Shown in pieces: positions 4,487 through 44,668 of a stretch of 64,000 nt of DNA; positions within the stretch are counted from its first letter, which is position 1; each line of letters starts with the position of its first letter. The notes below the pieces were generated by a model that was not told where the DNA came from, did no database searches, and saw nothing but the letters and a program-made list of their open reading frames with translations. The position numbers were made by a program, and so were the translations under genes. The stretch comes from Syntrophales bacterium (lineage in GTDB: Bacteria; Desulfobacterota; Syntrophia; Syntrophales; UBA2210), in assembly GCA_963662405.2 (NCBI GenBank), contig CAXXKT010000001.1, forward strand, positions 224,001 through 288,000, given 5' to 3'.

Positions 4487-4563
4487 ACCCCCGTAGCTCA
4501 GTAGGATAGAGCAACGGATTCCTAATCCGTGTGTCGTGCGTTCGAATCGCACCGGGGGTACCA
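4487..4563 (+). tRNA. tRNA-Arg (anticodon CCT)
   Basis: Acceptor stem ACCCCCG/CGGGGGT, anticodon arm ACGGA-TTCCTAA-TCCGT, GTTCGAAT T-loop, encoded CCA; 77 nt. Confidence 0.97.
4516..4563 (+). repeat. attL core (3' 48 bp of tRNA-Arg)
   Basis: Identical to 44415-44462. Confidence 0.95.
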
Positions 4564-7793: not shown

Positions 7794-7813
7794 TGGATAT
7801 TATGGTGTATTCG

Positions 7814-8074
7814 TTACCATCGTTCCTTCTTCTGCCGTTCCATGTTGAGCTTTGCTTCTCCGTAGAGCCTCCAGATGCACAGGCCGACGGCGAGGAAGAA
7901 GAGACCGAACATGAAACTGGGTTCGGTATTGAACCGGGTGTCGATCCACCGGCCTGCATAGAGGAACAGAAACGAGGAAGCGACGATCACGAACCCCCAT
8001 ACGCTGATCTGCAATATCTGAGTCAGGTTCGATCTCCAGTTTATCGAGTGATGGTGGTGATGTGTAGTGATCAT
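7814..8074 (-). CDS. AtpZ/AtpI-like two-TM protein with N-terminal His tract (island copy)
   Basis: Two hydrophobic helices around GRWIDTRFNTEP; AGGAGG RBS; near-identical paralogue at 45035-45295. Confidence 0.7.
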   Translation of the reverse strand: MITTHHHHHSINWRSNLTQILQISVWGFVIVASSFLFLYAGRWIDTRFNTEPSFMFGLFFLAVGLCIWRLYGEAKLNMERQKKERW

Positions 8075-8112
8075 TGTTCGAGTCCTCCTTTCGTAGGGTG
8101 TTTACCGTTTCA

Positions 8113-8388
8113 TTAGCTCACGAGGTTTTTGAGCGCGCCCACGACCGGAGCCGTGAAGAGAGCCACCAGGACGGCGTAGAGTGCGAAAGAGCCGACCGCC
8201 TCGCTGAGGTACAGTTTTGAGTACTTGTGTTTCAGAGAGGTGATGATCAAGCCGCCGACGATGAGGCATCCGAGATGGAAGTAAGGGAAGTTGGCCGCGT
8301 TGGTTGCGGTATACTCGGCAAACCCGAAAGAGGCGGTGACGAGCACCACGAAAGCCGCCATGATGATTGTCTGTACTGTCCGTTTCAT
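8113..8388 (-). CDS. Small membrane protein with signal-like N-terminus (island copy)
   Basis: AGGAGG RBS, hydrophobic segments, near-identical paralogue at 44724-44999. Confidence 0.75.
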   Translation of the reverse strand: MKRTVQTIIMAAFVVLVTASFGFAEYTATNAANFPYFHLGCLIVGGLIITSLKHKYSKLYLSEAVGSFALYAVLVALFTAPVVGALKNLVS

Positions 8389-8443
8389 GAGTATATCCTC
8401 CTTTTTATGTTTCCTTGTTTTCTTTCTTTTGACTTTATACTAA

Positions 8444-8459
8444 TGAAAGAAGCGTGCCA
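8444..8459 (-). promoter_or_regulatory. Sigma54-like promoter TGGCACG-N4-TTTCA
   Basis: One mismatch to TGGCACG-N4-TTGCA; identical 16-mer upstream of the host copy (44653-44668). Confidence 0.65.
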
Positions 8460-9028
8460 TTTCGCTGACTGGCGGTCAGAATATTTGTAACATATTGAAT
8501 ATGAGAAGGTTGTTGAGGAGAGCGGACTGGCGGAGGGGCACACAACCATGCCCGAACAACATGCCTGATTAAATGAAACATCAAACCGGATTGAATGAAA
8601 TGTTAGAAAAAGAGGGGAATAATAATATCACCGTTTGGGCATGAGCCAGCCGAGGAAACCATACCGAACCAAGCGCTTCCCGGGACGCTGAATATGTCGG
8701 CGGCCTGACTGGCATGTTGCCTGATAGCGGCGCAAATAATCGTATCGTTAAGATATTACTGAAAGCAATTTCATAATATTGCTTCAATCGTAATTCTATC
8801 AATTACAGGAGGAAGCAGAACGCAGTAACATACGAGCTCTGCCCCTGTTGCACCAAATCTCACACGTTTAACTACCGCTTGGGATCAGTTTTGGGGAAAA
8901 TCGATGATTGCCGTTTTAAAGTCTCACTGAAATGTGGCATGGGTGAATGAATTCGAAAAAACAACACTTCAAGAAGCGAGTTAGCAAAAGTCACATCTGA
9001 CGGTCTTACAACAAGCCGGATCGCTTCC

Positions 9029-9096
9029 TTCACTACTAACAAATGATTTTGATCAAAGGGAAATGCTGAGCTTGACCGTTGGAAGTGTAGCAAAAC
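9029..9096. repeat. Platform B, downstream half (copy 1)
   Basis: Aligns with 23171-23239; homology stops at the AAC/AAT core. Confidence 0.85.
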
Positions 9097-9905: not shown

Positions 9906-11633
9906 TTATTCTCCATTGCCTCCAAGGGTAGATCGTTCTTCGTGACTCAGGCCATAAAGCTTGAACACGGCTCGGTCGCAAGCTTCTATGTCTCGCTTTA
10001 TGGCAGCATCAGCTAACTCTCGGCGCAGCAGCGCAGGCACATCTGCCCAGGGAGGAATGCGAATCCGGCGTAGGTACTGTGCTTGGAAACGCAGGAACCC
10101 CCCTCGCATCTTCGTTGAATAGGTCGCCACGAAAAGGCGAGTGACAGAGGACAACAGCACCGCCTGCAAAGCCCGCAAATCCCACTCATTAGATGTGACG
10201 TGGTATAGGTTATGATGTGGGTACAGTACCCCGCCTTCAAAGACGATATGCGCTTCGCCCTTTATGTCAGGTATCAAAAGCTTCGGCTTTGCGCCCAGCG
10301 CGGGGGTAATGCGATCAATCGTTCGATACCAGTTGACTGGAGCTTTCTTTGCACAGTGGCGTCCCGCAATCACGTCGCGGCGAGCTTCAAGGTATCGTCT
10401 CAGGCGCGGATAGGCGTCGAGGTCAACCAGACCACCCGATTCGGCAAATGGATTGATGACCCCTTGTCCTCGCCACTTAACCTCACCCGACATGATGTCT
10501 TTTGTCGTCACCAGTCGAATTTTCCGATCGGGCTCAACATCAAGTGCGTCGAAGTCCCCGATGAATGCCTCATCTGCGCCGGTGGCGACACCAATGCCGA
10601 CTTTGCATCCGGTCTCTTCGAGTGATGGGAAACACTGCTCCAGACGGCGAATGAGCGTCATCTGATCGTAAGATCCCAGCAGCCAAGGTTCAGAACCATT
10701 CGTGACACAGGCAAGTTCACGCACCCCTCCAGACTCTCCCTGCAATGAAGGAGCACGGAGCAAGTCCGCCAGTGCAGTCAGGGTTGCCCGGTCAATAACT
10801 GGACGATGCGCAATGCGAGTTACACCCGGCACTTCACGGCTGATGATCGTTATAGCAGGGTACGTAATCACGTCAGAATGGAACGCTGGGGTATCCACCA
10901 TATCGACATAGACTCTCAAGTGAAACCGTTCTGCCACCAGACTCCGAAGTGGCCCACCATATCGGTTCTTCATCCACCGATCTGTACAGATAAAACCCAG
11001 ACTTCCCTTATCCGACAAGAAAGAAAGCGAGCGCTCGATGAAGGCGATATAGATGTCTGCCCTGTCAAACATTGTCTGGTAGCGGGTTCGGTACTCTGCA
11101 AGCAAGGGCGCTGAAATAAGCTCCTGACGGACGTAGGGTGGATTGCCCACAACAAAATTAAATTCTCCTTCCAGTGGAGCGAGCAGAAAATCCCCCTGTG
11201 ACAGCCACCCGTCAACAAGAGCCGCTGCAGTTTTGGCCGCTATCCCCTCGCGTTTGAGAAGGGTTACTATCGCCGCATAGGTGCTGCGAAAAGTATCATG
11301 ATGCAACTCGACGGCCTTGATCGCGTTGCTCAGGTCGTCCAAGGCAGTGCCATTCGGCTTTGCAGCCCGCCAGGCGCGCAGCAACCGCTCGATGATCGGA
11401 AGCAGGAAATCACCACCACCAAACGATGGCTCCAAAATCCGCATTTCATGGAGCGGCTGATCTTCCGTGTAACCAACAAGATCGAGAATGAACTCAACTA
11501 CCTCGCGACGGGTAAATATCGCTCCACGTGCGTCAGTTTCTGGATTTAACGCCAACTGATCTATCGCAGCCTGCACTTTTTTTGTGATGTACTCAGGATT
11601 TGGGAAGTCGATTGTAATTTGTGATGATTGCAA
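9906..11633 (-). CDS. N6-adenine methyltransferase (M.PaeR7I-like, gamma class)
   Basis: [10 protein letters not shown] motif I before VGNPPY motif IV; C-terminal specificity region. Confidence 0.88.
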
Positions 11634-11667
11634 GAAGCTTCCTCTTTGCGTTGGTGTGATATAATAC

Positions 11668-11810
11668 CGCCAACAATGAATATGCCCATTAGGTGTTTCC
11701 CGACCTTTCGTGCAATCCTACTTTATTTCACGAAGAATTAAAACAGAAAAATCTAATGTAAAATCAGTACCAATTGATTTTTTCGATTGGTTATTCTGCG
11801 GCAATAAAGA
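11668..11810 (-). repeat. Platform B, upstream half (copy 1) ending in attI-like core GTTGGCG
   Basis: Aligns with 25681-25825 starting exactly at the AAC of the core. Confidence 0.8.
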
Positions 11811-12194
11811 GTAAAATCCTAAGTTGGTAAAACATAGGAGGAATGGCAATGGCTAATAATAAATACCATTTGAAATGATGTATTGACGGATCGAATCAAA
11901 TAAACGACAGTGCAGGAAGAATGGCGCAGCAAAACACGAGTTCTGCCCCTGCTGTACCAAATCTCACACGTTGCACCTTGTCCTCACCATCGAGTGCGCC
12001 GAGAGCTCACCGATTGTTTATTGAAGTCGGCATTCTGGGGGGAAGTTTCTGTGTAGCAGATTTCTTTCGGTAATGCGCAGGAATCATCAAAGAAAAAAGA
12101 AATCGTGCTGTTTATTGGTGTCACTTACTACTGCTCAGAATAATTCCAGAGGAAAATCGATGAGTACTGATTGAAAGACTCACGGTAAAATCTC

Positions 12195-12340
12195 TTGACA
12201 ATACTTCGTCGGATAGTTAGTTAAGTAAGCGTTTTGATCTTGACGGCTTTACTTTTTTGAACTGCTGTAATAACCAAAGGGGAGATTATGGTCTGATCAT
12301 CAAAGCTCCGTTTCTTAAAAAGAGAGATGGAGCTTTTTTT
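12195..12340 (+). promoter_or_regulatory. Platform A leader copy 1: TTGACA promoter, SD-ATG-GTC-TGA, intrinsic terminator
   Basis: TTGACA 12195, TAG at 17-bp spacing, ATG 12288, hairpin + T-run 12302-12340; homologous to 18182-18327 and 21733-21876. Confidence 0.75.
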
Positions 12341-12406
12341 ATGAATGTCTCGATCGAATTTTAGGTGTTATGACGCACTTTCCCCTGTTTTTAAGATATT
12401 ATACGA

Positions 12407-12429
12407 GATCCATATAAACATTGTTAGAC
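12407..12429 (+). other. attI-like docking site GATCCATATAAACATT/GTTAGAC
   Basis: Matches 21932-21950; GTTAGAC is the exact complement of GTCTAAC of the first attC (13642). Confidence 0.65.
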
Positions 12430-12466
12430 GATACCAGTTATTCAATTCAGAGAAGGAATTTAAATA

Positions 12467-13437
12467 ATGGTCACAGTTTTTTTTCATATTCTCACCGCGA
12501 TGAAGATCTGAGGAATGAATTGGAAATTCATCTTTCAGCTCTTAAACGCCAGGGTGTTATCCAAACTTGGCATGATAGGCGAATTGAAGCCGGCAAAGAC
12601 CTTGACGATGAGATCGATTCAAATATTGAGGGTGCAAATATTATTCTTCTTCTCGTAAGCCCCTATTTTATAGCATCAGATTACTGTTATAATGTTGAAA
12701 TGCAACGCGCGATGGACCGCCATGTTAAAGGTGAAGCCAGAGTGATACCTGTCATCCTTCATCCGTGTGACTGGCAACAGACCCCTTTTGGGAAATTGCG
12801 GGCCACACCGACTGACGGCAAAGCTGTCTCAAAATACCCCAATCAGCATGATGCTTTCCTCTCTATTACCAAAGATATACGCCATGTTGCCGAAGAAATA
12901 ACCGGAGGATCAAAAAACGGAAATAATATTTTGAAACAATCACGGTATGTCAGAACAGAGGATATAGTCCCATCTCAATTTGCTGAAAAGCCAAGATCAA
13001 GCAATCTAAGAGTTCGTAGAGAATTTACCGACATTGAAAGGACAAGATTTCTTTCTGGAGCTTTGGGCTATTTTCAGAAATATTTTGAGAACTCTCTTAT
13101 AGAACTTCAGGCTCGTTCTGTTGGGATCGAAACCGAATTCAGAAAAATAGATGCAAACCACTTCATGGCTATGATTTTCAAGAAGGGTAATCTGGTTAGT
13201 CAATGCAAAATCTGGCTTGCAATGGATTCTTACTCGACAGGAGAGATCCGTTACTCTTCGTCTGTGTCTGTCAATGACAACTCTTGGAATGAATCACTTC
13301 ATGTAGAAGATGATGGCTATGTTTTGGGTCTCAAAAGTAGGGGATTTCATCATATTGGTTCCGATTCAGAAACATTATTGTCTAATGAAGGTGGCGCAGA
13401 ACTTTTTTGGAGTATGCTTTTGAATTCTTTACAATAA
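12467..13437 (+). CDS. TIR-domain protein; natural start out of frame at a T8 tract
   Basis: FFSYSHRD, WHDRRI, LLLVSPYF, SDYCYNVE; AGAAGGA-ATG at 12467 joins the TIR frame only if T8 (12477-12484) were T9. Confidence 0.8.
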
Positions 13438-13454
13438 AATGTAAGGAGAAGGCA

Positions 13455-13601
13455 ATGATTAGACAACGTTTCAGATGCAGAAACTGCGGCCGTAGATTCG
13501 AAACCGAGGTATTTGAACCAGGTGAAGCTAAAGAAAAGGGTTTGCCTTCTGGTCCAGTGAGGTGCCCAGATTGTAGAAGCACTGATGTAGAAAGAATTTA
13601 G
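13455..13601 (+). CDS. 48-aa zinc-ribbon protein
   Basis: CRNC...CPDC; AAGGAG RBS; inside the same cassette as the TIR gene. Confidence 0.7.
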   Translation: MIRQRFRCRNCGRRFETEVFEPGEAKEKGLPSGPVRCPDCRSTDVERI

Positions 13602-13641
13602 TCTTTTGTATTTGCCAGATAGGCAATATACTGATCAACAC

Positions 13642-13713
13642 GTCTAACAAGTCGCTGGAGAATCGACGGGAACACGCTGGTGCGTTTCCCGCGTCTCAGC
13701 TCCATCGTTATAC
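13642..13713 (+). other. attC site 1
   Basis: GTCTAAC...GTTATAC, L boxes GCTGGAGA/TCTCAGC pair with one extrahelical base; 72 bp. Confidence 0.85.
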
Positions 13714-13752
13714 AAAACAGAGGCCACATGCCAAATTCACGAACAGGAAATC

Positions 13753-16194
13753 ATGAAACTTGACGATTGGAAAGCAGAAACAAAGACGCGATTACCCACT
13801 AGCGCGGTTTATAGTGTTCTAAAAGAGAAGTGTAACAGGGACTCAGCTGGGCATCAAGTGTTGGAACTCGTTGATACCGCTACCTACTATGCATATCAAA
13901 GAACCAAAAGTATAATCCGGCATATGGGAGAGTTTACTCTCCATGATGGAGACCATCTATTCCGTGTGCTGTCGCTGCAGGAACGGTTGCTTTCCAATGG
14001 GCAATTGCGTTCGCTCAATGTTCCTGAACTCATGTTAATGATTTTGTCGGCGTTTTTTCATGATATTGGGATGGCGCCTGATGAACAAGACGTAATAGCA
14101 TGGAAAAAGATATGGGATACTACACCTCAATTTGAGAGCGGTACGGAAGAATTGGAGTATCAAAAATTTGAAAGGTTCTATTTCGCGAGGCCTGATGATC
14201 GCGATAGGGTTGAGCAATGCCTTCGCCGCGGAGATCATACTGGGGCAGACTGTGCTAAAGCTCATGTGGTTAGTGATTATATAAGGACGACACATGCGGA
14301 GCGAGCTAGGCAAATCATTAAGAAAGATTGGATGAATAAGATCGTATATCGCGATACTGACCTTACGGTTGAGTTTGCAGGGATTTGCTTCAGCCATAAC
14401 GAAGATCCACTTTCTTTGCTGGATCTTGATCCCGGTTATTTGTGTGGCCCTGATCTTTATGCAAACTTGCAACTTGTGGCCATTCTTTTAAGACTATCAG
14501 ATATTCTGGATTTCGATGCCAAAAGAACACCATCTATCCTTTTTTCTCACTTGTATGTGCGAAATCCAGTTTCCATTAGTGAATGGAACAAACATCGTTC
14601 GGTAGAGGCGTGGAGCATAACACCTGAAATTTTACAATTTCATGCAAAATGCCGTCATCCGGCTATTGAGGCGTCGATAAATGCTTTTTGTGATCTCATA
14701 GATATCGAGTTGGGTGCATGCAATAATATTGTCGCATCAATAAATAAATTCGATCGTCGTTTTTCTTCATCTGCTATTATGCTCCCCCTAAGAGTTGATC
14801 GAACCAAGGTTGAAACGGTGAAAGATATAGAAGGAAAGCCGGTTTACCTATATCGACAGACGCAGTTCAATCTAAGCAAAAAGCAAGTTATAGATTTGTT
14901 GATGGGAACGAAACTCTACGGTAATCCAGAGGTGGCTTTGAGAGAACTGATCCAGAATTCAATTGATGCTTGCCTGTTAAGGCAGGCACTAGAAGCTTCT
15001 TGGAAAACCAATTACACTCCGAGAGTAAATATTAAATATTATTCTATGGATGGGCAAGATATTCTTGAGGTAGAAGACAATGGAACCGGTATGGATCAGC
15101 ACATTATCGATGCATATTATTCAAAAGTAGGGTCTTCCTTCTATAAGTCTTCCGAGTTCTATGAGCTGAAGTCTCAGGCCAGAGCTAGTTTTACGCCAAC
15201 ATCAAGATTTGGAATTGGGATCTTATCATGTTTCATGGTCGCGGATACGCTAATTGTCGATACAAGACGTGTATATGGACCGCATGAATCAAGTAAACCG
15301 TTGAATGTTACTATCGAAGGACAGGAAAGCATTTTCTGGATTAAATCCGGCAGCCTGTCAACTCCGGGCACTACAACTAAATTATTCCTTCGAAAAACAG
15401 GAAATCCCTGGGATAGGATGGATGAAAACGAATTCATTACATCGGTGGAAGGAATTATTTCAAATCCGCCATTTGAAATAAAGATAGAGACATCTTCTCA
15501 TAGCAAGTCCAGGGATGCCTCAAGCTTTCTCCAAGTGCATGCAAATAACTTAGAAAATCGTTCATGGGAGGAACACGATAACGTTCGGAAGATATCTATC
15601 GAATTTGATGATCCCGCAAGAGGCTTTGTCGGTTCCGCTGTTGTTGCCATATTAGAGAGTCATGGCTTCCCAGTGCCTAAGTTAGAAATGACTTCTCAGA
15701 CAGTCGATATTAATGGTGAACCGTACGAACTTGGAAAGAGCATCGCTATTATTGAGAATGAAATAGAAGAGTCAGCAACAACTATTTCAATAGACGAAAA
15801 TGGAGATATTGATCAATCGAATTCATATCGTTCACTGAACAAGTCCATATCTCAGCTATCTCTGCATGGTATTGAGGTGCCTACCACATTATTTCCTGCA
15901 TCGTGGAGGATGCAAAAGAATCAGGTTAAGCTTTCATGGCCATTCCCTATAATATTGGTGGTGGATGTTTGTGGAGACGCTGATCTAGATCTCAATTCGT
16001 CGCGTACGCAGATAATAATGTCGGAAAAATGGGTCGAGTTTGAAAAACGGCTGTCATTTGAAATATGTTCGAAGCTTGCAGACTCTGTGTCTCGGGATTA
16101 CTGGGAAAAACTTAGAAATGTGTTGTTGTCAAATACGAAAAACCCAATCTTTTCTCAGAGTGTAAACGAAGTTGAAAAAAGCTACAACGTATAA
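13753..16194 (+). CDS. HD-domain (HD-CE-like) + Hsp90/GHKL ATPase fusion, putative defence effector
   Basis: FTLHDGDH and FFHDIGM; LRELIQNSIDA, EDNGTGM, FGIGILS. Confidence 0.8.
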   Translation: MKLDDWKAETKTRLPTSAVYSVLKEKCNRDSAGHQVLELVDTATYYAYQRTKSIIRHMGEFTLHDGDHLFRVLSLQERLLSNGQLRSLNVPELMLMILSAFFHDIGMAPDEQDVIAWKKIWDTTPQFESGTEELEYQKFERFYFARPDDRDRVEQCLRRGDHTGADCAKAHVVSDYIRTTHAERARQIIKKDWMNKIVYRDTDLTVEFAGICFSHNEDPLSLLDLDPGYLCGPDLYANLQLVAILLRLSDILDFDAKRTPSILFSHLYVRNPVSISEWNKHRSVEAWSITPEILQFHAKCRHPAIEASINAFCDLIDIELGACNNIVASINKFDRRFSSSAIMLPLRVDRTKVETVKDIEGKPVYLYRQTQFNLSKKQVIDLLMGTKLYGNPEVALRELIQNSIDACLLRQALEASWKTNYTPRVNIKYYSMDGQDILEVEDNGTGMDQHIIDAYYSKVGSSFYKSSEFYELKSQARASFTPTSRFGIGILSCFMVADTLIVDTRRVYGPHESSKPLNVTIEGQESIFWIKSGSLSTPGTTTKLFLRKTGNPWDRMDENEFITSVEGIISNPPFEIKIETSSHSKSRDASSFLQVHANNLENRSWEEHDNVRKISIEFDDPARGFVGSAVVAILESHGFPVPKLEMTSQTVDINGEPYELGKSIAIIENEIEESATTISIDENGDIDQSNSYRSLNKSISQLSLHGIEVPTTLFPASWRMQKNQVKLSWPFPIILVVDVCGDADLDLNSSRTQIIMSEKWVEFEKRLSFEICSKLADSVSRDYWEKLRNVLLSNTKNPIFSQSVNEVEKSYNV

Positions 16195-16250
16195 CAAGGT
16201 TTTTACAGGGATCGCAAAAACCGCGCGTTTGCTGAAAAACAACGTTATGC
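16189..16250 (+). other. attC site 2
   Basis: GTATAAC (contains the gene's TAA)...GTTATGC; TTTTACAG/CTGAAAA L boxes; 62 bp. Confidence 0.8.
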
Positions 16251-16275
16251 GTTTTGTGCATAAGGGGAAGTTAAA

Positions 16276-18087
16276 GTGAAGCTCGAACGATTGACATTGA
16301 AGAATTTTCGTGGCTATCGCGACGAAACCCCAATTCAGTTCGATGATCTAACCGCATTCATTGGAAGAAATGACGCAGGGAAGTCCTCGGTATTGGAGGC
16401 TCTTGAGATCTTCTTCAATAGCTCCTTAATCACTTGTGAACGTGAAGATCTTTCCATCGAGGCGCAAGGACACAATATAGAAATTGCATGCATTTTTTCT
16501 GAGGTCCCAGATCAAATCGTAATTGATGCGGCGAGCCCAACAAATCTGGCAGACGAGCACCTTCTTAATGGTGACGGCAATCTGGAGATTAAGAAGATCT
16601 TCCCAGCGACTGCCGCGAAACCGAAGGAAAAGATTTATATCAGTTGTATGCATCCATCGATTGAGGGTGCTGCCGACTTGCTCGAATTAAAACGAACGGA
16701 GTTGCGAGCACGTGCAGCGGAACTTGGTGTTCCAGAGGATAGTTATAATGGCAATGTAAATGCATCAATACGTCAGGCCATACGGCAACATATAGGTCAC
16801 CTCAACCTCACTCCTGTGGAACTACTGGTCGATAAAGAGGACACGAAGAAGGTTTACGACACAATCAAGGACTATCTGCCGATCTATGCGCTGTTTCAAT
16901 CTGATCGGCAAAGTCGTGACGATGACAAGGAAGTTGCAGACCCAATGAAATTGGCTGTTCAACAGGCGTTGCATGATCTCGCACCCGAGTTGGAGCACAT
17001 CAAGACTGAGGTCCGCGCTAGGGCAATAGAAACCGCGAATCGGACACTAATCAAGCTTCGAGAAATGGTGCCAGAGTTGGCTCGTGAGCTGACTCCGGAG
17101 TTCAAAGCGGAACCTAAATTCGATTCTCAGTTCAAGTTGTTGATCAAGTCGGAAGATGACATTGCAGTGAATAAGCGCGGCAGCGGAGTTCGGCGGCTCA
17201 TCTTGCTGAACTTTTTTCGTGCGGAGGCTGAACGCAGGCAGAGTGACGCGGTAGCATCTGATGTTATTTACGCCTTCGAAGAACCTGAAACCTCACAGCA
17301 TCCAGATCATCAAGAAATGTTGATGAGAGCATTTTTGGAGCTGGCTAACGCTCCAGGTAGCCAAATTATCATTACAACTCATACCCCAGCGCTGGCAGGT
17401 TTCCTGCCCCTGGAAAGCCTACGTTTCATTGAGCGTGAGGGGCATAGCCGAACCGTTGAGTCAGGGAACGATGATGTATTTCAGAAGGTCGCAGACACGT
17501 TGGGCATCCTTCCCGACCCAATTCCCAAAAATGCAACGGCCATCCTCCTCGTTGAAGGCAAGAGTGACATTTCATTCGTTCACCATACTGCGGAGCAATT
17601 GAAGGACGGCGGCCATCTGGACGCAACATTTGAAGACCGCAGATTTGCAATCGTACCAATAGGTGGGTGCGGTAATATCAAGCATTGGCGAACCCTTCAA
17701 CTGGCGAATCAATTTGGCGTGCCCTATTGTGTACTCCTTGACTCGGACCTCGGTACTCCCGAAGAGGCTGAGAACAGGCGAAAAGTCGCGGAACTGAAAG
17801 CCGACGGTATCAAAGCGTACCTCACGCGGAAACGCGAGCCAGAAAACTATATTCATCTCGATTGTCTCAATCTTCCAGCAAGCAGCACATTCACCATTAG
17901 TGATACGGACGACGCCAAAGTAAAAATAGGCCATGAGAAAGGGACTCGAAGGGCCACCGTCCTGGAAGATTATTGGGTGTTGATGACCTGCGAGCAAATT
18001 CGGGAGGTTGAAAAGTATGCTGACGGAGACACTGAAAAGTTCGAATTCACAGAGATGTTTCGGGACTTTTTGTCGCTTACCAATTGA
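16276..18087 (+). CDS. OLD-family ATP-dependent nuclease (ABC ATPase + TOPRIM)
   Basis: KNFRGY, GRNDAGKS, FEEPETSQHP, TTHTP; TOPRIM LVEGKSD and LDSD. Confidence 0.88.
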   Translation: MKLERLTLKNFRGYRDETPIQFDDLTAFIGRNDAGKSSVLEALEIFFNSSLITCEREDLSIEAQGHNIEIACIFSEVPDQIVIDAASPTNLADEHLLNGDGNLEIKKIFPATAAKPKEKIYISCMHPSIEGAADLLELKRTELRARAAELGVPEDSYNGNVNASIRQAIRQHIGHLNLTPVELLVDKEDTKKVYDTIKDYLPIYALFQSDRQSRDDDKEVADPMKLAVQQALHDLAPELEHIKTEVRARAIETANRTLIKLREMVPELARELTPEFKAEPKFDSQFKLLIKSEDDIAVNKRGSGVRRLILLNFFRAEAERRQSDAVASDVIYAFEEPETSQHPDHQEMLMRAFLELANAPGSQIIITTHTPALAGFLPLESLRFIEREGHSRTVESGNDDVFQKVADTLGILPDPIPKNATAILLVEGKSDISFVHHTAEQLKDGGHLDATFEDRRFAIVPIGGCGNIKHWRTLQLANQFGVPYCVLLDSDLGTPEEAENRRKVAELKADGIKAYLTRKREPENYIHLDCLNLPASSTFTISDTDDAKVKIGHEKGTRRATVLEDYWVLMTCEQIREVEKYADGDTEKFEFTEMFRDFLSLTN

Positions 18088-18090
18088 AAC

Positions 18091-18152
18091 ACATAACATC
18101 TTGCAGATAAGGACGTGCAAAACTCCCCGCGCCTCATAGCATTGCGTTAATG
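18091..18152 (+). other. attC site 3 (partly degenerate)
   Basis: ACATAAC 3 bp after stop...GTTAATG; imperfect hairpin; 62 bp. Confidence 0.65.
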
Positions 18153-18181
18153 ATTACTGAAAGTCTCACGGGGGAAATTTC

Positions 18182-18327
18182 TTGACATGACGCTACTATA
18201 CAGCTAGTAGTTTAGAAGCTTCATCGGTCTTGACCGCTTTATATAGGTTTTTGAACAGCTGTAACCGGAGGGGATTATGGTCTGATCATCAAAGCCCTGT
18301 TTCTCAAAATGAGAGATAGGGCTTTTT
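18182..18327 (+). promoter_or_regulatory. Platform A leader copy 2
   Basis: TTGACA 18182, GGAGGGGATT-ATG-GTC-TGA at 18277, hairpin AAAGCCCTGTTTCTC/GAGAGATAGGGCTTTTT. Confidence 0.75.
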
Positions 18328-18381
18328 GTTTTGTGTGAACGCCCTAGAATAATACTGTTAACAGTAGAAAACGGGTGACAT

Positions 18382-20703
18382 ATGAACCCTACTTTTATTG
18401 ATATTCACATTCATACATCGGAGAATCCAGACAAACTCAACCCAAACTATGACGTTAACTCATTGTATGAAAATGTGACCAAGGTCGCGCATGAAGCAGA
18501 TACACTAATATCATTGTCAGATCATAATGTTATAAATGAAAATGCCTACCTAAAAGCCTTACATAAATTCCCCAATATGCTTATCGGATGTGAGTTGCAC
18601 ATTCGAAACTATCAGAATAAACCTCCCTATCATTGCCATATTCTTTTCGGTACTCCAACGATAGATCACGAAACTATTTCGAAGATCAATGAATCCCTGC
18701 TAAAATTATATCCGAAGAAGGTTGTTAAAAATGCAGATACAAACATTCCAGAAATACAAGACATCATAAAAGAATTTGAGGAATACGACTTTCTGGTTCT
18801 TCCTCATGGTGGACAGTCCCACTCAACTTTTGACATATCCATTCCTGATGGCGTTATATTCGACAGCAGTCTTGAAAGAAGTATTTATTACAACACCTTT
18901 GACGGATTCACTGCAAGAAGCAACAAAGGTCTAGAAAAAACAATTGAATATTTCAAGCGCCTCGGAATTAACGATTTTGTCAATCTCATTACTTGCACGG
19001 ACAACTACAATCCCCAAAAATATCCTAGTCCAAAAACAGATGAATATGAAGAATATATCCCTACTTGGATGAACTCATTGCCAACATTTGAAGGCCTAAG
19101 ACTTGCTCTATCAGAATCATCTCGGCTTTCGTACCAAAGTGACCCCCCCGGTAGATGGTCGGAATACATCAAATCGGTGCACTTGTCGAATCCCAGAATA
19201 GAAATCGACGTCAATTTGAGTGAGGGCTTAAATGTGGTTATTGGTGGTTCATCAAGTGGAAAGACTCTTTTTGTAGATTCCTTGTATTGCAAGATCGTTA
19301 ACAATTATGAGGAGAATGTTTATGTCAAGTCGCAATATCCTGTCAAGGATATAGACGTCAACAATCCTTCAGGATTGACTCCACATTATATCAACCAAAA
19401 CTATATTACTAAAATTGTCGATACCAAGAACAATGAGACGAGAATTGATGATATTGAGATAATAAAAACCCTATTTCCAGACGATAACGAGGCAAAACTC
19501 AACATCCAACGGTCATTGCATGACTTCAGAGAGTGTTTCAAGGAACTCCTAAGTAGTGTGAAAGCAATAGAGGAGATTCAGAGTTCCCTGAAAAGGATAC
19601 CCTTCCTTTCGCAGTTGATATTGTTGGCAAAAGTAAAAGATAACGTGATTGAGAAACTTCTGCCATCTCCAGAGCAAATACAATTAATTCATATTTCCAA
19701 AGCTTTGCACCACTCATATTCTGAACATCTTGAACAAATAGATAACTTTTTGACAAATAATCCGGTCATTGACCACGATCCATCTTTGGTTATGAGGTTA
19801 AAAGATGAATTGGATCTAGCGTTTTCCTTCTCTCATTCTGAGGAACTTGTCAGAGCCATAATCGAGAAAAAGAAAGCCGACCAGAAAGCTTGGCTTCTCC
19901 AGTTGAACAAAGAAGGACAGCAAAAAAAAGATTCCTTTAACGATCTGACACGATTTTTTACCAATTACAACATCGCAGTCAAGAAATTCAATAACTGCTT
20001 AATAAGGCTTGGTAAATTCGATACAAAGGCGCAATCAAACACAATTAAAGCAATGGGACATATATTGTATATCGAAAACCAATTTTGCATAAATAGCAGT
20101 ACGTTTATCGATATTCTGAACCAATTTCTAAAAAAGGAAAATCAGATTGAATCGATGGACACTTTACACCCAGAGTCGCTATTCTTCGCCAATTTCAAGC
20201 AAAAGCCTAAGATCAGCGATTATGATGATTTGGAGTCTAAGGTGTACGCTAAATTCGAAGGCCTTAATAAGAAATCATTCAAAATCACTACTAGCGACGG
20301 AAGGGATTTTGATAACCTAAGTGCTGGTTGGAAAACATCTGTAATATTGGACTTACTCTTAGGCTATGAAGAGGATTTTGCTCCCATAATAATCGATCAA
20401 CCCGAGGACAATCTTGCGAATCCTTATATAAACAGGGGGCTGATCAAAGCTATCAAGGATATCAAACCAAAGAAACAAATAATTCTAGTGTCGCATAATG
20501 CCACGATACCAATGTTGGGTGATGCTCAGACTGTTGTTGTTTGCAAAAACGAAGAAAATAGGATTGAAATAAGATCCGCCAAACTTGAGGGTAACATAAA
20601 CTCAAAAAAGGTTGTCGATCATATTGCCGAGTTGACAGATGGCGGCAAGGTATCGATCAAAAAGAGGGTCAAGAAATACAACCTTAGAAAGTTCAGGGAA
20701 TGA
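18382..20703 (+). CDS. PHP-domain + ABC-type ATPase fusion (Ppl/TrlF-like defence protein)
   Basis: DIHIHT, SDHN, GCE, PHGG, CTDN; GGSSSGKT, LSAGWK, IIDQPEDNL, VSHN. Confidence 0.85.
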   Translation: MNPTFIDIHIHTSENPDKLNPNYDVNSLYENVTKVAHEADTLISLSDHNVINENAYLKALHKFPNMLIGCELHIRNYQNKPPYHCHILFGTPTIDHETISKINESLLKLYPKKVVKNADTNIPEIQDIIKEFEEYDFLVLPHGGQSHSTFDISIPDGVIFDSSLERSIYYNTFDGFTARSNKGLEKTIEYFKRLGINDFVNLITCTDNYNPQKYPSPKTDEYEEYIPTWMNSLPTFEGLRLALSESSRLSYQSDPPGRWSEYIKSVHLSNPRIEIDVNLSEGLNVVIGGSSSGKTLFVDSLYCKIVNNYEENVYVKSQYPVKDIDVNNPSGLTPHYINQNYITKIVDTKNNETRIDDIEIIKTLFPDDNEAKLNIQRSLHDFRECFKELLSSVKAIEEIQSSLKRIPFLSQLILLAKVKDNVIEKLLPSPEQIQLIHISKALHHSYSEHLEQIDNFLTNNPVIDHDPSLVMRLKDELDLAFSFSHSEELVRAIIEKKKADQKAWLLQLNKEGQQKKDSFNDLTRFFTNYNIAVKKFNNCLIRLGKFDTKAQSNTIKAMGHILYIENQFCINSSTFIDILNQFLKKENQIESMDTLHPESLFFANFKQKPKISDYDDLESKVYAKFEGLNKKSFKITTSDGRDFDNLSAGWKTSVILDLLLGYEEDFAPIIIDQPEDNLANPYINRGLIKAIKDIKPKKQIILVSHNATIPMLGDAQTVVVCKNEENRIEIRSAKLEGNINSKKVVDHIAELTDGGKVSIKKRVKKYNLRKFRE

Positions 20704-20936
20704 GCATGAAAATGCATTTTTCAAGAAGCGATACTGGCGAAACTGTGGTGCAACTTATCGAAAATGGGGATGCGTTACCTTTCAATTACATTACACTTGT
20801 GAAGCATCTGATCGTTAATGCGAATCTGGAAGAGACAACATTTGATGAAGAGTTTTCCTCTGAAGAACAGGCTGCTGTGAATTCAATGGCTGAACGTCTT
20901 GTAGAGGCATGTAAAAAAGAACCGAAGGCCAGCTGA
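20700..20936 (+). CDS. Small acidic hypothetical protein coupled to the PHP-ATPase
   Basis: ATGA overlap with upstream stop. Confidence 0.6.
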   Translation: MSMKMHFSRSDTGETVVQLIENGDALPFNYITLVKHLIVNANLEETTFDEEFSSEEQAAVNSMAERLVEACKKEPKAS

Positions 20937-21148
20937 GTTGCAGGGTACCTGTTTATTACCAGAATTATACAATAACTCGATCCCGATTAGTTTTCTAGAC
21001 TTCAGGAAAAATTTAATAAACCATGGACTTAGGCTGTTCTATTATGATCTGCTCGGGCAATTCCTAGACGTACGCGATCTTTAACTTCTGGCCGACGTAG
21101 ATCCGATTCCGGAACCTTATCTTGTTAACTTGAATCAGAAATATTGAA

Positions 21149-21469
21149 ATGCCAACTTTTTTAGAAATGAAGATTGATAACGATATTGAAAATATTCTTA
21201 AAGATACCATTAGAGATATCTTTGAATGTAAGGACGAAGAAAAAAGACTGGCCATTGATGTATTCTTTGAGTTGGCAAAAGATTGTTCGATCCCATCAAA
21301 TGTTTTGGATAAAATTCTTTATTATTTTATAAATTTTCATGGACCTAATAAAGCTGGGAATAGAGTAGCAGCTAATATTTTTAAACAGAAGTTTGATGAG
21401 TCATATAACAGCTCGGATTTTAGCCAACTTCTAGCAATGATGAAGCATGATCAGGATAAAGGATCATAA
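21149..21469 (+). CDS. Hypothetical protein
   Basis: 106-aa ORF in AT-rich DNA; no motif recognised. Confidence 0.5.
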   Translation: MPTFLEMKIDNDIENILKDTIRDIFECKDEEKRLAIDVFFELAKDCSIPSNVLDKILYYFINFHGPNKAGNRVAANIFKQKFDESYNSSDFSQLLAMMKHDQDKGS

Positions 21470-21732
21470 AGAGGACAAATAAGATAGGGGCAGAGGCTTT
21501 TTGACTGAACATTGCTAATTACTAAAAAGAAATCTACAAATTGTGGTGATTACTTGTATTTGTAGTCAATAAATGTGGGAAATGGATTCACGGCTTGGCT
21601 TTCAATCCGTACTGTTCAGGCAGGATAAAGGAAAATGCCAGAGTGTCGGTTATTGACGCCACCTACTACTGCTCAGAATAATTCAATTAGAAAATCAACA
21701 ATTACTAATTGAACGTCTGATGGTAAAATCTC

Positions 21733-21876
21733 TTGACAATACATTATCATAGAGTTAGCTAGAAAATGATTTTGGTCTTGATTGTTTCTGCTTGTGAGCA
21801 GCTGTAGCCAAGGGGGATTATGGTATGATCATTAAAGCCCTGTTTCTCAACGCGAGAGATGGGGATTTTGTTTTTT
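21733..21876 (+). promoter_or_regulatory. Platform A leader copy 3
   Basis: TTGACA 21733, AGGGGGATT-ATG-GTA-TGA at 21820, terminator hairpin 21834-21876. Confidence 0.72.
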
Positions 21877-21931
21877 GTGGACAGGTTATGTTGATATCGA
21901 TGTTGCCGGATGAAGAATGGGTTTTTATCAG

Positions 21932-21954
21932 GATCCAGATAAACATTGTTGAAC
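21932..21954 (+). other. attI-like docking site GATCCAGATAAACATT/GTTGAAC
   Basis: Near-identical to 12407-12425 up to GTT; 16 bp upstream of cassette gene. Confidence 0.6.
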
Positions 21955-21970
21955 TCATAAGGAAAATTGA

Positions 21971-22999
21971 GTGGAAGATTTACATCAAGAGTTTTTGAAA
22001 ACACTCAATGAGGTGATTGAGAAAAATCCAGAAAAAGCAGATGAGATTGATATTGAGCAACTCATAGCAGATGTAACCCCAGAAGCCGTTCGCTTAATAA
22101 AAAGCTCTCTTCTAAAATCCGCGAAAAAGATGCTTAAGGAGAGGCGAAAGTTAGCTAAAGGCTTCGAAAAGCGGAACATAAAACGCTGGTCTAAAGCATT
22201 CGATTTATTAGAGTCTCACATTGTTATATGTACAGAGGCAGGAGAAGAATTCAACTCATCGTATAGACCAACTGCTGCTGAGGAAAACAATTTAGTATTT
22301 GATATTGTTGTCAGACATCATGCAAGAGCCTGTCATATTGCACAGGAAATTCTATGTCTCTTAAAGGCAGGTTTTGCTGATGCTGCTCATGCCAGATGGC
22401 GTGCTCTCCATGAAGTAACCGCGACAGGAATGTTCATAGCTAGACATGGTCATGATTGTGCAGAGAGATTCTATTTTCATGACATTGTTGATTCTTACGA
22501 CGGAATGCTTGAGCACAAAAAGTACGAAGATCGGCTCCAGGAAAAGGCACCCTCCCAAGAAGAGCTCGATAGCTGCAAAGTAGAATATGACGAACTGATT
22601 GCACGATACGGTAAGAAATTTGCAGATCATTATGGTTGGGCTTCATACTTGTTCCCAAAACATAGGCGAGTAGGTTTTACAGCAATAGAAAAGAATGTTG
22701 GCTTGGATCATATGCGCCCCTACTATAGGTGGGCTAGCCAGAATATACATTCGGGCTCTAAAGGAATGAGAAACCGTCTCGGACTGTGTGAGGCAAAAGA
22801 CGATATTCTACTGGTTGGGCAAAGTAATTCAGGAATGACAGATCCTGCTCATGCAACAGCTATTAGTTTAAACCAAATTACTTGTGCTCTTTTGATGCTT
22901 GAGCCTACGTTAGATCATATTGTGATCATGAAAATAGCTGATGAATTTCAAAATGATGTGGGGGAAGCATTCCTAGAGATAGAGCGAAATGATTCATAA
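21971..22999 (+). CDS. DUF5677-like protein (possible HEPN-type fold)
   Basis: ARWRALHE and YRWASQNIH patterns; family recognised from memory only. Confidence 0.6.
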   Translation: MEDLHQEFLKTLNEVIEKNPEKADEIDIEQLIADVTPEAVRLIKSSLLKSAKKMLKERRKLAKGFEKRNIKRWSKAFDLLESHIVICTEAGEEFNSSYRPTAAEENNLVFDIVVRHHARACHIAQEILCLLKAGFADAAHARWRALHEVTATGMFIARHGHDCAERFYFHDIVDSYDGMLEHKKYEDRLQEKAPSQEELDSCKVEYDELIARYGKKFADHYGWASYLFPKHRRVGFTAIEKNVGLDHMRPYYRWASQNIHSGSKGMRNRLGLCEAKDDILLVGQSNSGMTDPAHATAISLNQITCALLMLEPTLDHIVIMKIADEFQNDVGEAFLEIERNDS

Positions 23000-23061
23000 C
23001 AAATCAATTAAGCGGAAAATCAGGCCTGCGGCCTATTTTCCGCTTATCTCAGTCGTTAATA
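22994..23061 (+). other. attC site 4
   Basis: TCATAAC (contains stop)...GTTAATA; strong stem TAAGCGGAAAAT/ATTTTCCGCTTA; 68 bp. Confidence 0.8.
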
Positions 23062-23170
23062 ATTTTTGAAAGAAATCCTTGCAATTGTTTCAATATTTAT
23101 TTTATCGGTTACAGGAAGAATCGCGCAGCAAAAGTATTTCTCGGACACTCCTGCGGCGATTTTCCCACTC

Positions 23171-23239
23171 TTCACCTACTAACAAATGATTTCGATCAAA
23201 GGGGAATACTGAGGATTACCGTTGGAAGTGTAGTAGAAT
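23171..23239. repeat. Platform B, downstream half (copy 2)
   Basis: Aligns with 9029-9096. Confidence 0.85.
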
Positions 23240-23292
23240 ACCAGTTTCACTGGCACCAACTGTTTGGCGTCCAGTGCAAAAAGATGTTAGCA
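23233..23292 (-). other. attC site 5 (DUF3800 cassette; R' core mutated GTT>ATT)
   Basis: Minus strand TGCTAAC...CACTGGACGCCAA-ACAG-TTGGTGCCAGTG...ATTCTAC; 60 bp. Confidence 0.7.
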
Positions 23293-23302
23293 TTTCATCC
23301 TA

Positions 23303-24525
23303 GTACCATGTAACATAATATGTTTCGTATTTATAAAAGGTATGATAGACTGGCGGCAAACCAACAGAGGAGGTTGCCATGTCGCCAAGATATCGAGTAA
23401 CCCTTACCAAAGAAGAACGCAAAGAGCTTGAGGCAATGACCCATAGAGGAAAGACCCATGCCCGAAAATTCATCCATGCCCGCGCATTACTTTTGTGCGA
23501 TGCCGGCTCTGACGGTCCGGCATGGAACGTGTCCGATGTTGCAGAGGCGCTTGGGGTGTCGAGCCGTTCGATCGAACATCTCAAAAAGCGCTTTGTTGAA
23601 GAGGGGCTTGAAGCAGCTCTCGAACGCAAGGCACGGGAAAAGCCTCCGAGAGACATCATTTTTGACGGTGCATTTGAGGCACGATTAGTCGCATTGGCCT
23701 GTTCAGACACTCCCGAAGGACATCGTCGCTGGACGGTCAGATTGCTTGCCGACAAAGCTGTCGAGCTTGGCATTGCCGATTCCGTATCACACATGACCGT
23801 ACAGCGGATTTTAAAAAAAACGAACTTAAGCCTCACATCAGCAAATACTGGAAAATCCCTCCCGAAGGGAGCGCGGCCTTTGTAGCATGCATGGAAGATG
23901 TTTTGGAGATATATCATCTGCCCTATGATCCCGACTATCCGGTTGTCTGCATGGATGAATCCTGCAAGCAACTGATAGGTGAAGTTCGAGAGCCGATGCC
24001 ATGCGCACCGGGAAGGCCGATGCGAACAGACGACGAGTATGTCAGAAACGGGGTAGTGGAAATATTTATGGAAGTTGAGCCCCTTGCTGGCAGAAGACAT
24101 GTGGCGATCACGGAACATCGAACAAGAAAGGATTGGGCGATGCAGACCAGGCAGATGCTTGATGAACGCTATCCCAGCGCCCTCAAGGTTCGTCTGGTCA
24201 TGGACAACCTGAACACCCATACAATCGCCTCACTCTACGAAACATTCAAACCCGGGGAAGCCAGGCGTTTAGCGGAACGACTCGATATCCATTATACGCC
24301 TAAACACGGAAGCTGGCTGAATATGGCAGAGATCGAGCTCAGCGCCCTGAAAGGACAATGCCTTAATCGCCGGATTCCCGACATAACGACCATGCGAACC
24401 GAAGTGGCCGCATGGGAAAAAGATCGAAACAACAGCGCGAAAAACATTGTATGGCAATTTACTACTCCTGATGCTCGCATTAAGTTGAAGCGCCTTTATC
24501 CGAAGCTATAAACGTTACATGGTAC
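23303..24525 (+). mobile_element. IS630-family insertion sequence
   Basis: 12-bp terminal IRs GTACCATGTAAC, TA duplication in a CTAG target. Confidence 0.92.
23379..24511 (+). CDS. IS630 transposase, two ORFs joined by -1 frameshift
   Basis: HTH orfA 23379-23885; DDE orfB (MDE, MDNLNTH, WLNMAEIE); A8 slippery run 23813-23820. Confidence 0.88.
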
Positions 24526-25825: not shown

Positions 25826-26606
25826 TGGCAGCAGTTCAACAAATACTGTTTGAAGTAGCGCATTGCCCTGAAAATTACTGAACACTCACTTACAGGAAGG
25901 AGCAGATAATCTACATGAGCCTAAAATGTACAGCCCGAGTTGTCCTACCTTTCAACCCACATTTAATAAGGTTGACCGACAAATTGTGGTGATGACTTGT
26001 ATTTGAAGTCTCGCACATCTTTGATGAAAGCAGTTTCATAGATTTCAGAAGGAAGGTGTCTGGATTTTACGAAATCCAAATAATAAACTTTCCAGGCTTA
26101 GAGTGCTTCGGGCCGTTGCATTTGGCCTCTGCGCGGTGGTTGTGAAACATTTGAGAAATAGATGGACTTGAAAGGAGTGGCCACATGAAAAAGGGTGGCC
26201 CTCTCACAGAATCGAAAAGACCACCCATCAGGAGGGACAGCACAAGGTCAATCCAAGTACTACTCCCGGTGGTAAGAAGCGGTAATAAGAGGTGGCTCGA
26301 TCGCCTGCAAAGGGAGAGTTAAGCCTGCCCGTAATCATCCGGTCCACCTTTTCATCAATCCGCTGTTGTTGCGCCTCTCCTCTCAATAATGATTCTTTGA
26401 TCCAGACGACATTTGCCGTCACGTCTTTCTTGACGCCGTCGATCCGGACTTCGTGCTGGGCGGAAAGGCCGTACACCATGTATTCCTCAGGCCGCATGCA
26501 GGAGAGAGATCTCCCGCGTTATTCAATCGCCCGATCGCGTAATGCCCGGAGTTTTTGCTCCCCACCCCGTCCACTGTCCGGGCCTATAGCCCTTTGAGAA
26601 GGTTTC

Positions 26607-42186: not shown

Positions 42187-42795
42187 TAACGTTCTTTGCA
42201 GAATACCCCGCGGCTTGCCGCGGGGATGAATGCATGCCTTGCCCAGGGGGTTATAAAGGGGGAGTGGAGCATCCCCCTTATCCACATAGGCCCTTGTGTG
42301 ACAATATGATATAAGATCGTCATGACAATTCAGCGAACGAGTCATGCGGTCTACGACACGAGTTATCATCTGGTATGGTGTCCGAAATACCGTAAGAAGG
42401 TTTTTGAGCGGGCGGATCTTCGGGAACGAGCGGGACAACTTATCCGAGAGATCAGCGAGGATTATGGATTTGACGTAATCGAGATGGAAATATCTATAGA
42501 GCATGTGCATTTGTTTTTGTCCTTTCCACCGAGCAGATCGATAGGAGAAGTTGTCAGAATCATTAAGAGTAAGAGTGCGCGGAGTTTGTTCCGCGAGTTC
42601 CCATGGTTGAAGAAGAAACTTTGGTCTGGGGAATTGTGGGAAGACGGGTATTTTGCGCGGACCGTCGGGGACCGTATGACTCGTGCCGTAATTGAACAGT
42701 ATGTTGCGCATCATAGAGACCTTACACAAGGGCCTGCGCAGCTTGATTTCAAGCTGCGCTAAAGATGCCCCGCGGCTTGCCGCGGGGAGCTTCAC
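42187..42795 (+). mobile_element. IS200/IS605-family element (tnpA only)
   Basis: Identical subterminal hairpins CCCCGCGGCTTGCCGCGGGG at 42206 and 42768; TTAT on left flank, ends TCAC. Confidence 0.88.
42322..42762 (+). CDS. tnpA: IS200 Y1 (HUH) transposase
   Basis: YHLVWCPKYR, EHVHL, LWEDGYF, EQYV. Confidence 0.92.
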   Translation: MTIQRTSHAVYDTSYHLVWCPKYRKKVFERADLRERAGQLIREISEDYGFDVIEMEISIEHVHLFLSFPPSRSIGEVVRIIKSKSARSLFREFPWLKKKLWSGELWEDGYFARTVGDRMTRAVIEQYVAHHRDLTQGPAQLDFKLR

Positions 42796-44414: not shown

Positions 44415-44462
44415 GGATTCCTAATCCGTGTGTCGTGCGTTCGAATCGCACCGGGGGTACCA
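44415..44462 (+). repeat. attR core (3' fragment of tRNA-Arg)
   Basis: Identical to 4516-4563. Confidence 0.95.
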
Positions 44463-44652
44463 TCTTCTCCCTGCGAGAGGTTCCCTTCCCCGGTTCTTAT
44501 TTTTTTCTGAACATTTCATGGAATCAGATTGGACGTTTCTTTAAAGATCCGGGCTTTCAGCGCCCGGATTCGCCCGCTTCCTCCCGGATGATCATCTCAG
44601 AAACCATCCTTCATTCAGCTGGTTGCAACTACTTTTCCCCGAATCCCCTGTA

Positions 44653-44668
44653 TGGCACGCTTCTTTCA
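44653..44668 (+). promoter_or_regulatory. Sigma54-like promoter (host copy)
   Basis: TGGCACGCTTCTTTCA. Confidence 0.65.

Follow-up and report, generated by a model that had tools for sequence, protein, structure and literature searches.

Three leaders in one genomic window

The DNA analysed here (the window) is a 64,000-nucleotide stretch of a Syntrophales genome, contig C1:224001-288000 of host genome G000; coordinates prefixed C1 or C2 below refer to the host contigs. It contains three + strand copies of a short leader in which a promoter-like site, a Shine-Dalgarno (SD) sequence, a two-codon minigene, and an intrinsic-terminator-like hairpin with a U-tract follow one another. The copies lie in the low-GC cargo (~12-26 kb) of a genomic island, which comprises TIR, HD-CE/ATPase, OLD-type, PHP-ATPase, and DUF5677 genes.

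Copy 1 opens with TTGACA-N17-TAGTTA (12195..12223, with G at -14 and no T at -7), copy 2 with TTGACA-N17-TAGTAG (18182..18210), and copy 3 with TTGACA-N17-TAGCTA (21733..21761). An earlier note on this DNA had taken the TTGACA hexamers at 12195, 18182, and 21733, each with a TAG exactly 17 nucleotides (nt) further on, for a promoter. The -35 element, the 17-nt spacing, and the TA are all present; the -10 element lacks the -7 T and fails a canonical promoter scan. The leader matches the sigma-70 pattern TTGACA-N17-TAnnnT in its -35, spacing, and TA; intergenic TTGACA sites of the host most often have this spacing (99/308 have TTGACA-N17-TA), and the -7 T is missing in 65/99 other host sites too. 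A family promoter is plausible. Further into the 5' leader, the G(A/G)TCTTGA block that the note had listed is found at 12236, 18226, and 21774 (in copy 1 it reads GATCTTGA, 12236..12243, and is moderately conserved), as are the GCTGTA blocks and the G-rich SDs. The minigenes are also as described, ATG-GTC-TGA in copy 1 (12288..12296) and copy 2 (18277..18285) and ATG-GTA-TGA in copy 3 (21820..21828).

A terminator scan places a hairpin and U-tract behind each minigene, with a stem of 15 bp in copy 1 (12302..12342), a stem of 16 bp in copy 2 (18291..18333), and a G-A mismatch at the stem base in copy 3 (21834..21876); these are the three strongest + strand terminators within 11600-23400. The stop codon is followed by five nucleotides (TCATC or TCATT), AAAG, the hairpin, and the U-tract. 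The note's gap of 5 nt differs from the 8 nt at which the G-C stem begins because the smaller figure counts the A-tract as terminator. Its description of the stems as compensated fits copies 1 and 2, which differ by two compensatory pairs.

A multi-copy leader family

Calling the leader thrice-repeated had understated it, as the repeat is genome-wide. A profile search of the host genome (E<=1e-5, >90 model positions covered) recovered 53 copies, and the profile search of the reversed host genome gave no match at E<=1; the repeat is far beyond chance. The 3' modules of the host were scored after four of 56 rows (mis-anchored or reverse hits) had been left out, leaving 52. A metagenome set was collected by the terminator alone, with the minigene unused, and membership was decided by the promoter or the GCTGTA block: 89 of 115 unique terminator matches are members, and 26 were dropped as non-members or truncated. 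Relatives are represented by the best match per locus only (72 loci).

By BLAST, the element is present in 16/24 genomes of the same family and in 0/16 other families. Of 61 genomes from the host's order, 24 (the host included) match a covariance model, many of them weakly. Named records carrying the element are mostly Syntrophaceae or Syntrophales assemblies, and only two loci with it are on viral contigs. An exact-pattern search of 300 further genomes of the phylum, insensitive enough to miss a carrier of the same genus, returned none. Rfam, which the note had proposed as a check, gave no match to the leader in the window at gathering score (the best E value within 11700-22000 was 1.8 when relaxed) and none at 11 further loci of the element. 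A literature search limited to open papers returned no description of this leader family. Three DNA runs from one sample cover the stretch and are possibly its source, so they lend no independent support, and a sequencing-run lookup listed no RNA run that contains it. Judged from the sequences, the family appears to be a multi-copy portable leader, whose principle is known and whose portable, free-peptide form seems new to the searchable literature.

Partial forms of the leader also occur. Promoter-only members, with the family -35 and TA and neither minigene nor terminator, are found at C1:1942045, 1330164, 2558876, 863966, and 405050 and at C2:332112 and 343251, and some other family copies lack the terminator alone. 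At C1:433-442 kb (L016), five divergent SD-minigene-terminator modules stand between the genes of one cluster and have no family promoter; four of the five have both ATG and TGA. Metagenome copies L092 and L182 are promoter-less and sit directly behind the stop codon of a long open reading frame (ORF). Host copies at C1:1880771, 2335806, and 2539180 and at C2:323320 begin 30-260 nt past tRNA genes, at the ends of islands.

Conservation of the minigene

Start and stop are both kept among the homologues, a point on which the note had staked its reading: ATG occurs in 87 of the 89 metagenome members and a stop at codon 3 in 81 (TGA in 79, TAA in two). Among the host copies, 48/52 have ATG or GTG, 42/52 have the stop, and 40/52 have both. 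The terminator's first G-C pair comes 8-10 nt after the stop. Pairing of the SD with the anti-SD has a median energy of -10.0 kcal/mol in the host copies and -10.8 kcal/mol in the metagenome set, whereas host genes give -7.2 and random ATGs -3.4.

The 89-member set alone is not decisive, because its flanks are equally conserved and of its ten non-TGA variants only two are stops. More can be learned from the divergent relatives, in which the flanks, the letters of the SD, and the letters of the terminator change while an SD and a start persist: 41/47 have an SD with ATG (35) or GTG (6) 15-21 nt before the stem, and 32 have a TGA, TAA, or TAG stop at codon 3-6, compared with such a start in 39/323 and such a short frame in 7/323 other host terminators. 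The chosen frame enters the stem in nine, and two of these, L236 and L244, contain by eye an ATG-led four-codon frame. Distant lineages exchange ATG with GTG and TGA with TAA and use two- or four-codon frames (one lineage has four codons), and the peptides of the relatives, MV, MD, MG, ME, MN, VE, MGRL, and MSGF among them, have 2-5 residues overall. Because start, stop, frame length, and peptide are swapped so freely, it is the reading frame that matters, and the Met-Val peptide is irrelevant. The weight that the note had placed on Met-Val and on the synonymous GTC/GTA change finds no signal in the alignment, where position 2 of codon 2 varies in 19/89 members and position 3 in 6/89. A leader-peptide attenuator of the trp or his type was rejected, as there are no control codons and no conserved peptide (the peptide is free, 2-5 residues).

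A predicted hairpin over the ribosome binding site

Base-pair profiles of the nascent leader, in which the start region is paired, first revealed a hairpin that we call P1. The conserved UGAACAGCUGUAACC block is complementary to GG-A-UUAUGG-U-CUG-A-UCA over 14 pairs, GCTGTA pairing with the start codon, and the predicted hairpin would close the ribosome binding site (RBS) of the minigene. In copy 1, P1 spans 12258..12299 (-8.2 kcal/mol), with its 5' strand at 12258-12275, the SD (12276-12284) mostly in the loop, and the start codon in the 3' strand. In copy 2 it spans 18252..18288 (-11.2 kcal/mol; 5' strand 18252-18266, SD GGAGGGG 18267-18273), and in copy 3 it spans 21795..21832 (-8.9 kcal/mol; 5' strand 21795-21809, SD 21810-21816). 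Across the family, most of the SD falls in a loop whose length varies (7-22 nt). The helix has a single bulged base, in the middle of codon 2, and no position of the 18-mer that contains the minigene is less conserved.

Several measures suggest that P1 is probably real. Its alignment cells are paired in 91.5% of cases compared with 25-46% when the strands are slid, and transitions within it keep a pair 68 times and break one 28 times, a per-column bias that leader columns outside P1 do not have. The start is paired to the 5' block in 67/79 and 35/52 minimum free energy (MFE) folds, and opening the RBS is predicted to cost 8.2-8.7 kcal/mol compared with 4.3 for 150 host genes. Divergent lineages have unrelated SD-sequestering hairpins with an opening cost of 8.6, and 32/43 exceed shuffled controls.

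Other structures were considered and set aside. The hairpin ATGGT-N3-ATCAT, which the note had offered as an alternative to a minigene, is worth just -0.2 kcal/mol, and the relevant predicted structure is the longer P1 with the GCTGTA block. Short local hairpins within the 18-mer reach +1.2, +0.9, -0.2, and -0.8 kcal/mol. A 4-bp helix proposed by RNAalifold has covariation not above that of shuffles, and a long-range pairing between GATCTTGA and TGATCA is present in the full-length MFE folds of the window copies, but its 5' block varies without compensation.

Terminator and downstream genes

The terminator hairpin has a median energy of -19.5 kcal/mol, and 49/52 host copies fall below -10. The unit is oriented towards genes. 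Counting loci with at least 700 nt downstream by a simple ORF caller, we found a same-strand gene after 49/52 host copies compared with 228/322 control terminators (Fisher p 1e-4), and likewise after 45/52 metagenome members, 23/23 close relatives, and 34/41 divergent relatives. In the host, 28/49 downstream starts are within ~100 nt of the element, and the DNA downstream of the copies is GC-poor (median 0.47 compared with ~0.54 for the genome).

The note had tied the leader to defence genes and cassettes, a specificity that is overstated: PADLOC at 1e-8 matches 11/42 first downstream genes outside the window, of which nine rather than 11 are credible because two are HD-GYP proteins matching Cas3 HD domains, and only 8/52 copies precede an attI-like box. 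Clear GajA and PD-Lambda-5 matches are among the nine. The other downstream genes encode GGDEF, HD-GYP, Lcl, MscS, or epimerase proteins or are unrecognised.

A candidate ribosome-gated attenuator

The note's proposal of an attenuator worked by a ribosome on the minigene is the best-supported reading, given the conserved SD, start, stop position, and spacing from stop to stem and the orientation of the unit towards downstream genes. We put at roughly 60% the probability that each copy is a portable ribosome-gated transcription attenuator that is off by default. The promoter-like site would produce an RNA whose first hairpin, the predicted P1, would close the RBS of the two-codon frame. With the RBS closed, the terminator hairpin, 8-10 bases past the stop, would be free to form and would keep the downstream genes mostly off. 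Were a ribosome to load and stay on the tiny frame, it would mask the base of the terminator, and transcription would continue. The scheme supposes that the leader is transcribed and its minigene translated, that the ribosome blocks the terminator sterically, and that the polymerase pauses long enough for the ribosome to act. As the signal, we lean somewhat towards ribosome dwell (translation stress or slow release, independent of the peptide) over loading speed (growth-rate coupling), because a stop kept just before the stem would make the ribosome leave quickly by default. In PMC4824070, ribosomes trailing the polymerase repress tR2 nearly fully from such stop-to-stem distances. By eye, the sequence suits a his-type pause (hairpin, ~11 nt, U then G) but has no G at -10, and we do not count the fit as evidence.

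A number of results weigh against the ribosome-gated attenuator. At the promoter, the -7 T is present in only 2/43 family copies compared with 34/99 other host TTGACA-N17-TA sites. In the core family, start and stop are conserved no better than the 18-mer as a whole, and changes that lose the stop (eight) outnumber stop-to-stop changes (two), with no enrichment of the latter. P1 was found post hoc and was not predicted by RNAalifold; its folding energy is unremarkable, with median z scores of -0.2 and 0.0, only three pairs change on both sides, its covariation score is reached in 34/500 shuffles, and in the host copies the opening cost is not raised above that of upstream-shuffled controls (23/52). 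The homologue counts are not independent events because the sequences are related, and the divergent relatives are not an independent sample, as the search model that found them includes the minigene; this inflates their SD and start fraction, but the model does not produce the pattern of interchange. On timing, PMC4824070 also reports a loss of only ~10% in efficiency for a terminator placed 30 nt past a start codon, therefore a pause must be assumed, and timing is the weak point. Finally, no strong antiterminator was found: with a simulated ribosome footprint, pairing of the freed 5' strand with the 5' arm of the terminator is weak, being 0.9 kcal better than shuffles (53/79) and absent from the divergent relatives, and the upper terminator stem persists. 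Because this pairing is weak and the upper stem still forms, the likely effect of a ribosome would be steric loss of the stem base beside the U-tract rather than an antiterminator switch.

Alternative explanations

The strongest competitor, which we nevertheless regard as unlikely, is a fixed dampener: the unit would supply every acquired gene with a strong -35 promoter and with a terminator whose small, constant leak depends on stochastic ribosome loading, fixing expression at a low level that no signal modulates. In its favour, the genes behind the copies have no function in common (defence, HD-GYP/GGDEF, Lcl, MscS, epimerase) and the peptide is free, PMC4824070 gives ~10% relief without a pause, and promoter-only and terminator-less variants are expected from tuning by part loss. 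A constant leak, however, needs neither an RBS-closing hairpin conserved in three lineages nor a stop kept just before the stem.

Less likely still is a trans factor (an RNA-binding protein, a small RNA, or a stand-alone UpxY-family NusG paralogue) that would act on the conserved block or on the hairpin to antiterminate and leave the minigene secondary. Nucleotide-level conservation of the whole 18-mer and of the terminator G-U pairs would suit it, ~50 copies suggest a regulon, and the host genome has one UpxY-family gene. That paralogue does not track the element, being present in 12/12 element genomes (one just under the cut-off) and also in 13/16 genomes in which the element was not detected. 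Nor did we find a stand-alone locus resembling the P1 strands, bar an unrelated repeat and four chance-level matches, and lineages diverge in sequence while SD, start, and spacing persist. The UpxY-family gene itself (L273:5234-5737) lies behind ribD with no adjacent polysaccharide operon and occurs in 25/28 order members tested.

A stand-alone trans-acting small RNA of ~105-115 nt, serving as ribosome or protein decoy or as antisense while the downstream genes have their own promoters, is improbable. The complete promoter-to-terminator unit, the strong hairpin (median -19.5 kcal/mol), and folding z scores of about -3 for copies 1 and 2 fit this idea; the strong orientation bias with 28/49 downstream starts within ~100 nt, the promoter-less 3' modules behind genes (L092, L182) and the five host copies at C1:433-442 kb, and the lack of an Rfam match do not. 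Least probable is a DNA-level module in which the near-palindrome ATGGTC-T-GATCAT acts as operator or recombination signal and the repeats are kept by cassette shuffling, as the variation favours G-U-compatible changes and divergent lineages lose the palindrome while keeping SD and start, even though the near-palindrome is real and the flanks hold attI-like sites (8/52) and an IS110 target.

Comparison with known systems

Among known systems, the leader resembles the short upstream ORF (uORF) attenuators of ARE-ABCF genes, cplR of C. difficile (uORF MRI), for which PMC10201436 describes a hairpin over the uORF followed by the terminator as the repressed state, and vmlR of B. subtilis (uORF MIN; PMC9226507). 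Both have a 5' hairpin that sequesters a very short uORF and then an intrinsic terminator, are off by default, and are turned on by the ribosome, a layout that is predicted for the window leader as well; cplR and vmlR differ in having an alternative antiterminator helix, a conserved peptide, and one cognate resistance gene. In the window leader, the stop is 8-10 nt from the stem, the peptide is free, and ~50 copies stand before unrelated genes. An antiterminator switch of the cplR/vmlR type was rejected, as only a marginal helix could be drawn and the upper terminator stem still forms. The marks of a uORF attenuator are present at the level of sequence: a terminator before a gene, a uORF with its own RBS, and a stop 8-10 nt before the stem.

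The attenuator of E. coli ampC is governed by the ribosome. Like the window leader, it has a start codon and an immediate stop before an intrinsic terminator ahead of a gene; it differs in that ATG-TAA is 2-3 nt from the stem, with no adjacent G-rich SD and no evident RBS-closing hairpin, and in being single-copy. Growth-rate anti-termination is attributed to it in PMC6045580. Ribosome-repressed terminators, including that of E. coli pyrBI, would share the steric block, which is exerted when the ribosome stands closer than ~10-15 nt to the stem, but pyrBI has a long leader peptide and nucleotide-sensitive pauses (PMC4824070). The 'Mobile attenuators' treated in PMC2965389 are likewise related terminators before unrelated genes in one lineage; those are terminators at insertion sequence (IS) ends, whereas the unit described here comes with a promoter, an SD, and a minigene and does not form the end of an IS.

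Copies 1 and 3 also recall the integron Pc-attI arrangement with the attI1 ORF-11/ORF-17, in which a promoter and a small ORF precede a cassette docking site. In PMC8876359, ORF-11 enhances cassette translation and has no terminator, whereas the window leader places a terminator between promoter and site. Most copies of the family also differ from an integron platform in having no such site, and the only integron integrase found (C1:2211885-2212937) is ~2 Mb from the window on the contig.

Cassettes and island context

The note had placed a leader upstream of each 'platform-A' site, which we took to mean the attI-like box GATCCA(T/G)ATAAACATTGTT. The box follows copies 1 and 3 and not copy 2, and it occurs after 8/52 host copies and 6/83 metagenome copies. 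Behind copy 1, the attI-like site (12407..12430, +; TAAACATTG/TTAGAC) agrees with the first cassette's inverse core and is followed by three + strand genes bounded by attC-like sites, whose inverse cores match the first bases of each cassette. Cassette 1 (12469..13713) carries a TIR/ThsB-like gene (12469-13437), behind it an ORF of 48 amino acids with two CxxC motifs (13455-13601), and an attC-like site (~13640-13713). Cassette 2 (13753..16251) carries an HD-CE and HSP90-like ATPase gene and an attC-like site (~16188-16251), and cassette 3 (16276..18153) an OLD-type ABC ATPase-TOPRIM gene and a weaker attC-like site (~18092-18153) that abuts the flank of copy 2. On the bottom strand, two of these attC-like hairpins fold and the third folds poorly. 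Copy 2 is followed, ~47 nt past its U-tract and with no attI-like box between, by a PHP-ATPase gene (18382..20703, +) that is TrlF/Ppl-like but below curated cut-offs. Behind copy 3, the cassette platform is present in part: an attI-like site (21932..21955, +), a + strand DUF5677 gene (21971-22999), and an attC-like hairpin (~22996-23062). No integron integrase lies beside the window copies (the integrase in the window scores below the integron cut-off), and no cassette array was seen in the 400 nt upstream of the distant one. The integron-type arrays at orphan attI-like sites comprise window 12407-18153 and 21932-23062, with the distant integrase at L274:1386-2438.

The cargo belongs to a 40-kb island anchored at tRNA-Arg (window 4487-44462), with the tRNA-Arg 3' end duplicated (4516-4563 and 44415-44462). 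It encodes an integrase, a CI-like repressor, a primase-helicase, a terminase large subunit, and two DNA methylases; no capsid genes were recognised among its genes, and the island has the appearance of a phage satellite or a defective prophage. A unit of two genes, one of which encodes an ATPase_gene1 (AtpZ/AtpI-like) protein, is present as an inverted duplicate (86-92%) at 7813-8460, within the island, and 44652-45296, just past its right end. A group II intron with a reverse transcriptase-maturase lies at 45969-47807 (Rfam D1-D4 matches), and the GC-rich palindrome beside it recurs at the ends of an IS200 (42203-42795). An IS630-like transposase is encoded in two frames (23379-24511), with a probable programmed frameshift.

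The upstream flank of copy 3 holds an empty CAC-CT-AC site of IS110 (21663..21676, +; also given as 21660-21676), and a second empty site is at 12124-12140. Copies of an IS110-family element are located at C1:158562, 305373, 1415794, and 164046 and at C2:343290; four of the five stand at CAC-CT-AC, 70 nt upstream of a family -35, and the fifth has only a partial flank, making this a candidate repeat-targeting IS110. Short intergenic repeats common to other host islands occur at window 8810-8932, 9033-9095, 11914-11972, 21536-21567, 23176-23238, and 25979-26010, and some of these blocks resemble IS110 ends or target flanks.

Implications

The known short-uORF attenuators are single-locus systems, each tied to one cognate gene. 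This control unit likely keeps acquired genes, some of them anti-phage, off unless a ribosome is on the tiny frame. If the attenuator reading is right, a 150-nt module that places any acquired gene or integron docking site under control of ribosome occupancy would be a general answer to how toxic defence genes and newly captured cassettes stay silent yet inducible; if the leader is only a fixed dampener, it would still be an unusual natural standard part. More tentatively, and with the odds clearly against it, the ~50 copies may form a lineage-wide 'translation-stress regulon' in which one peptide-independent ribosome sensor silences foreign DNA, and defence genes, signalling genes, and dispersed integron docking sites would then be released together on ribosome stalling, as in phage takeover or toxin activation.

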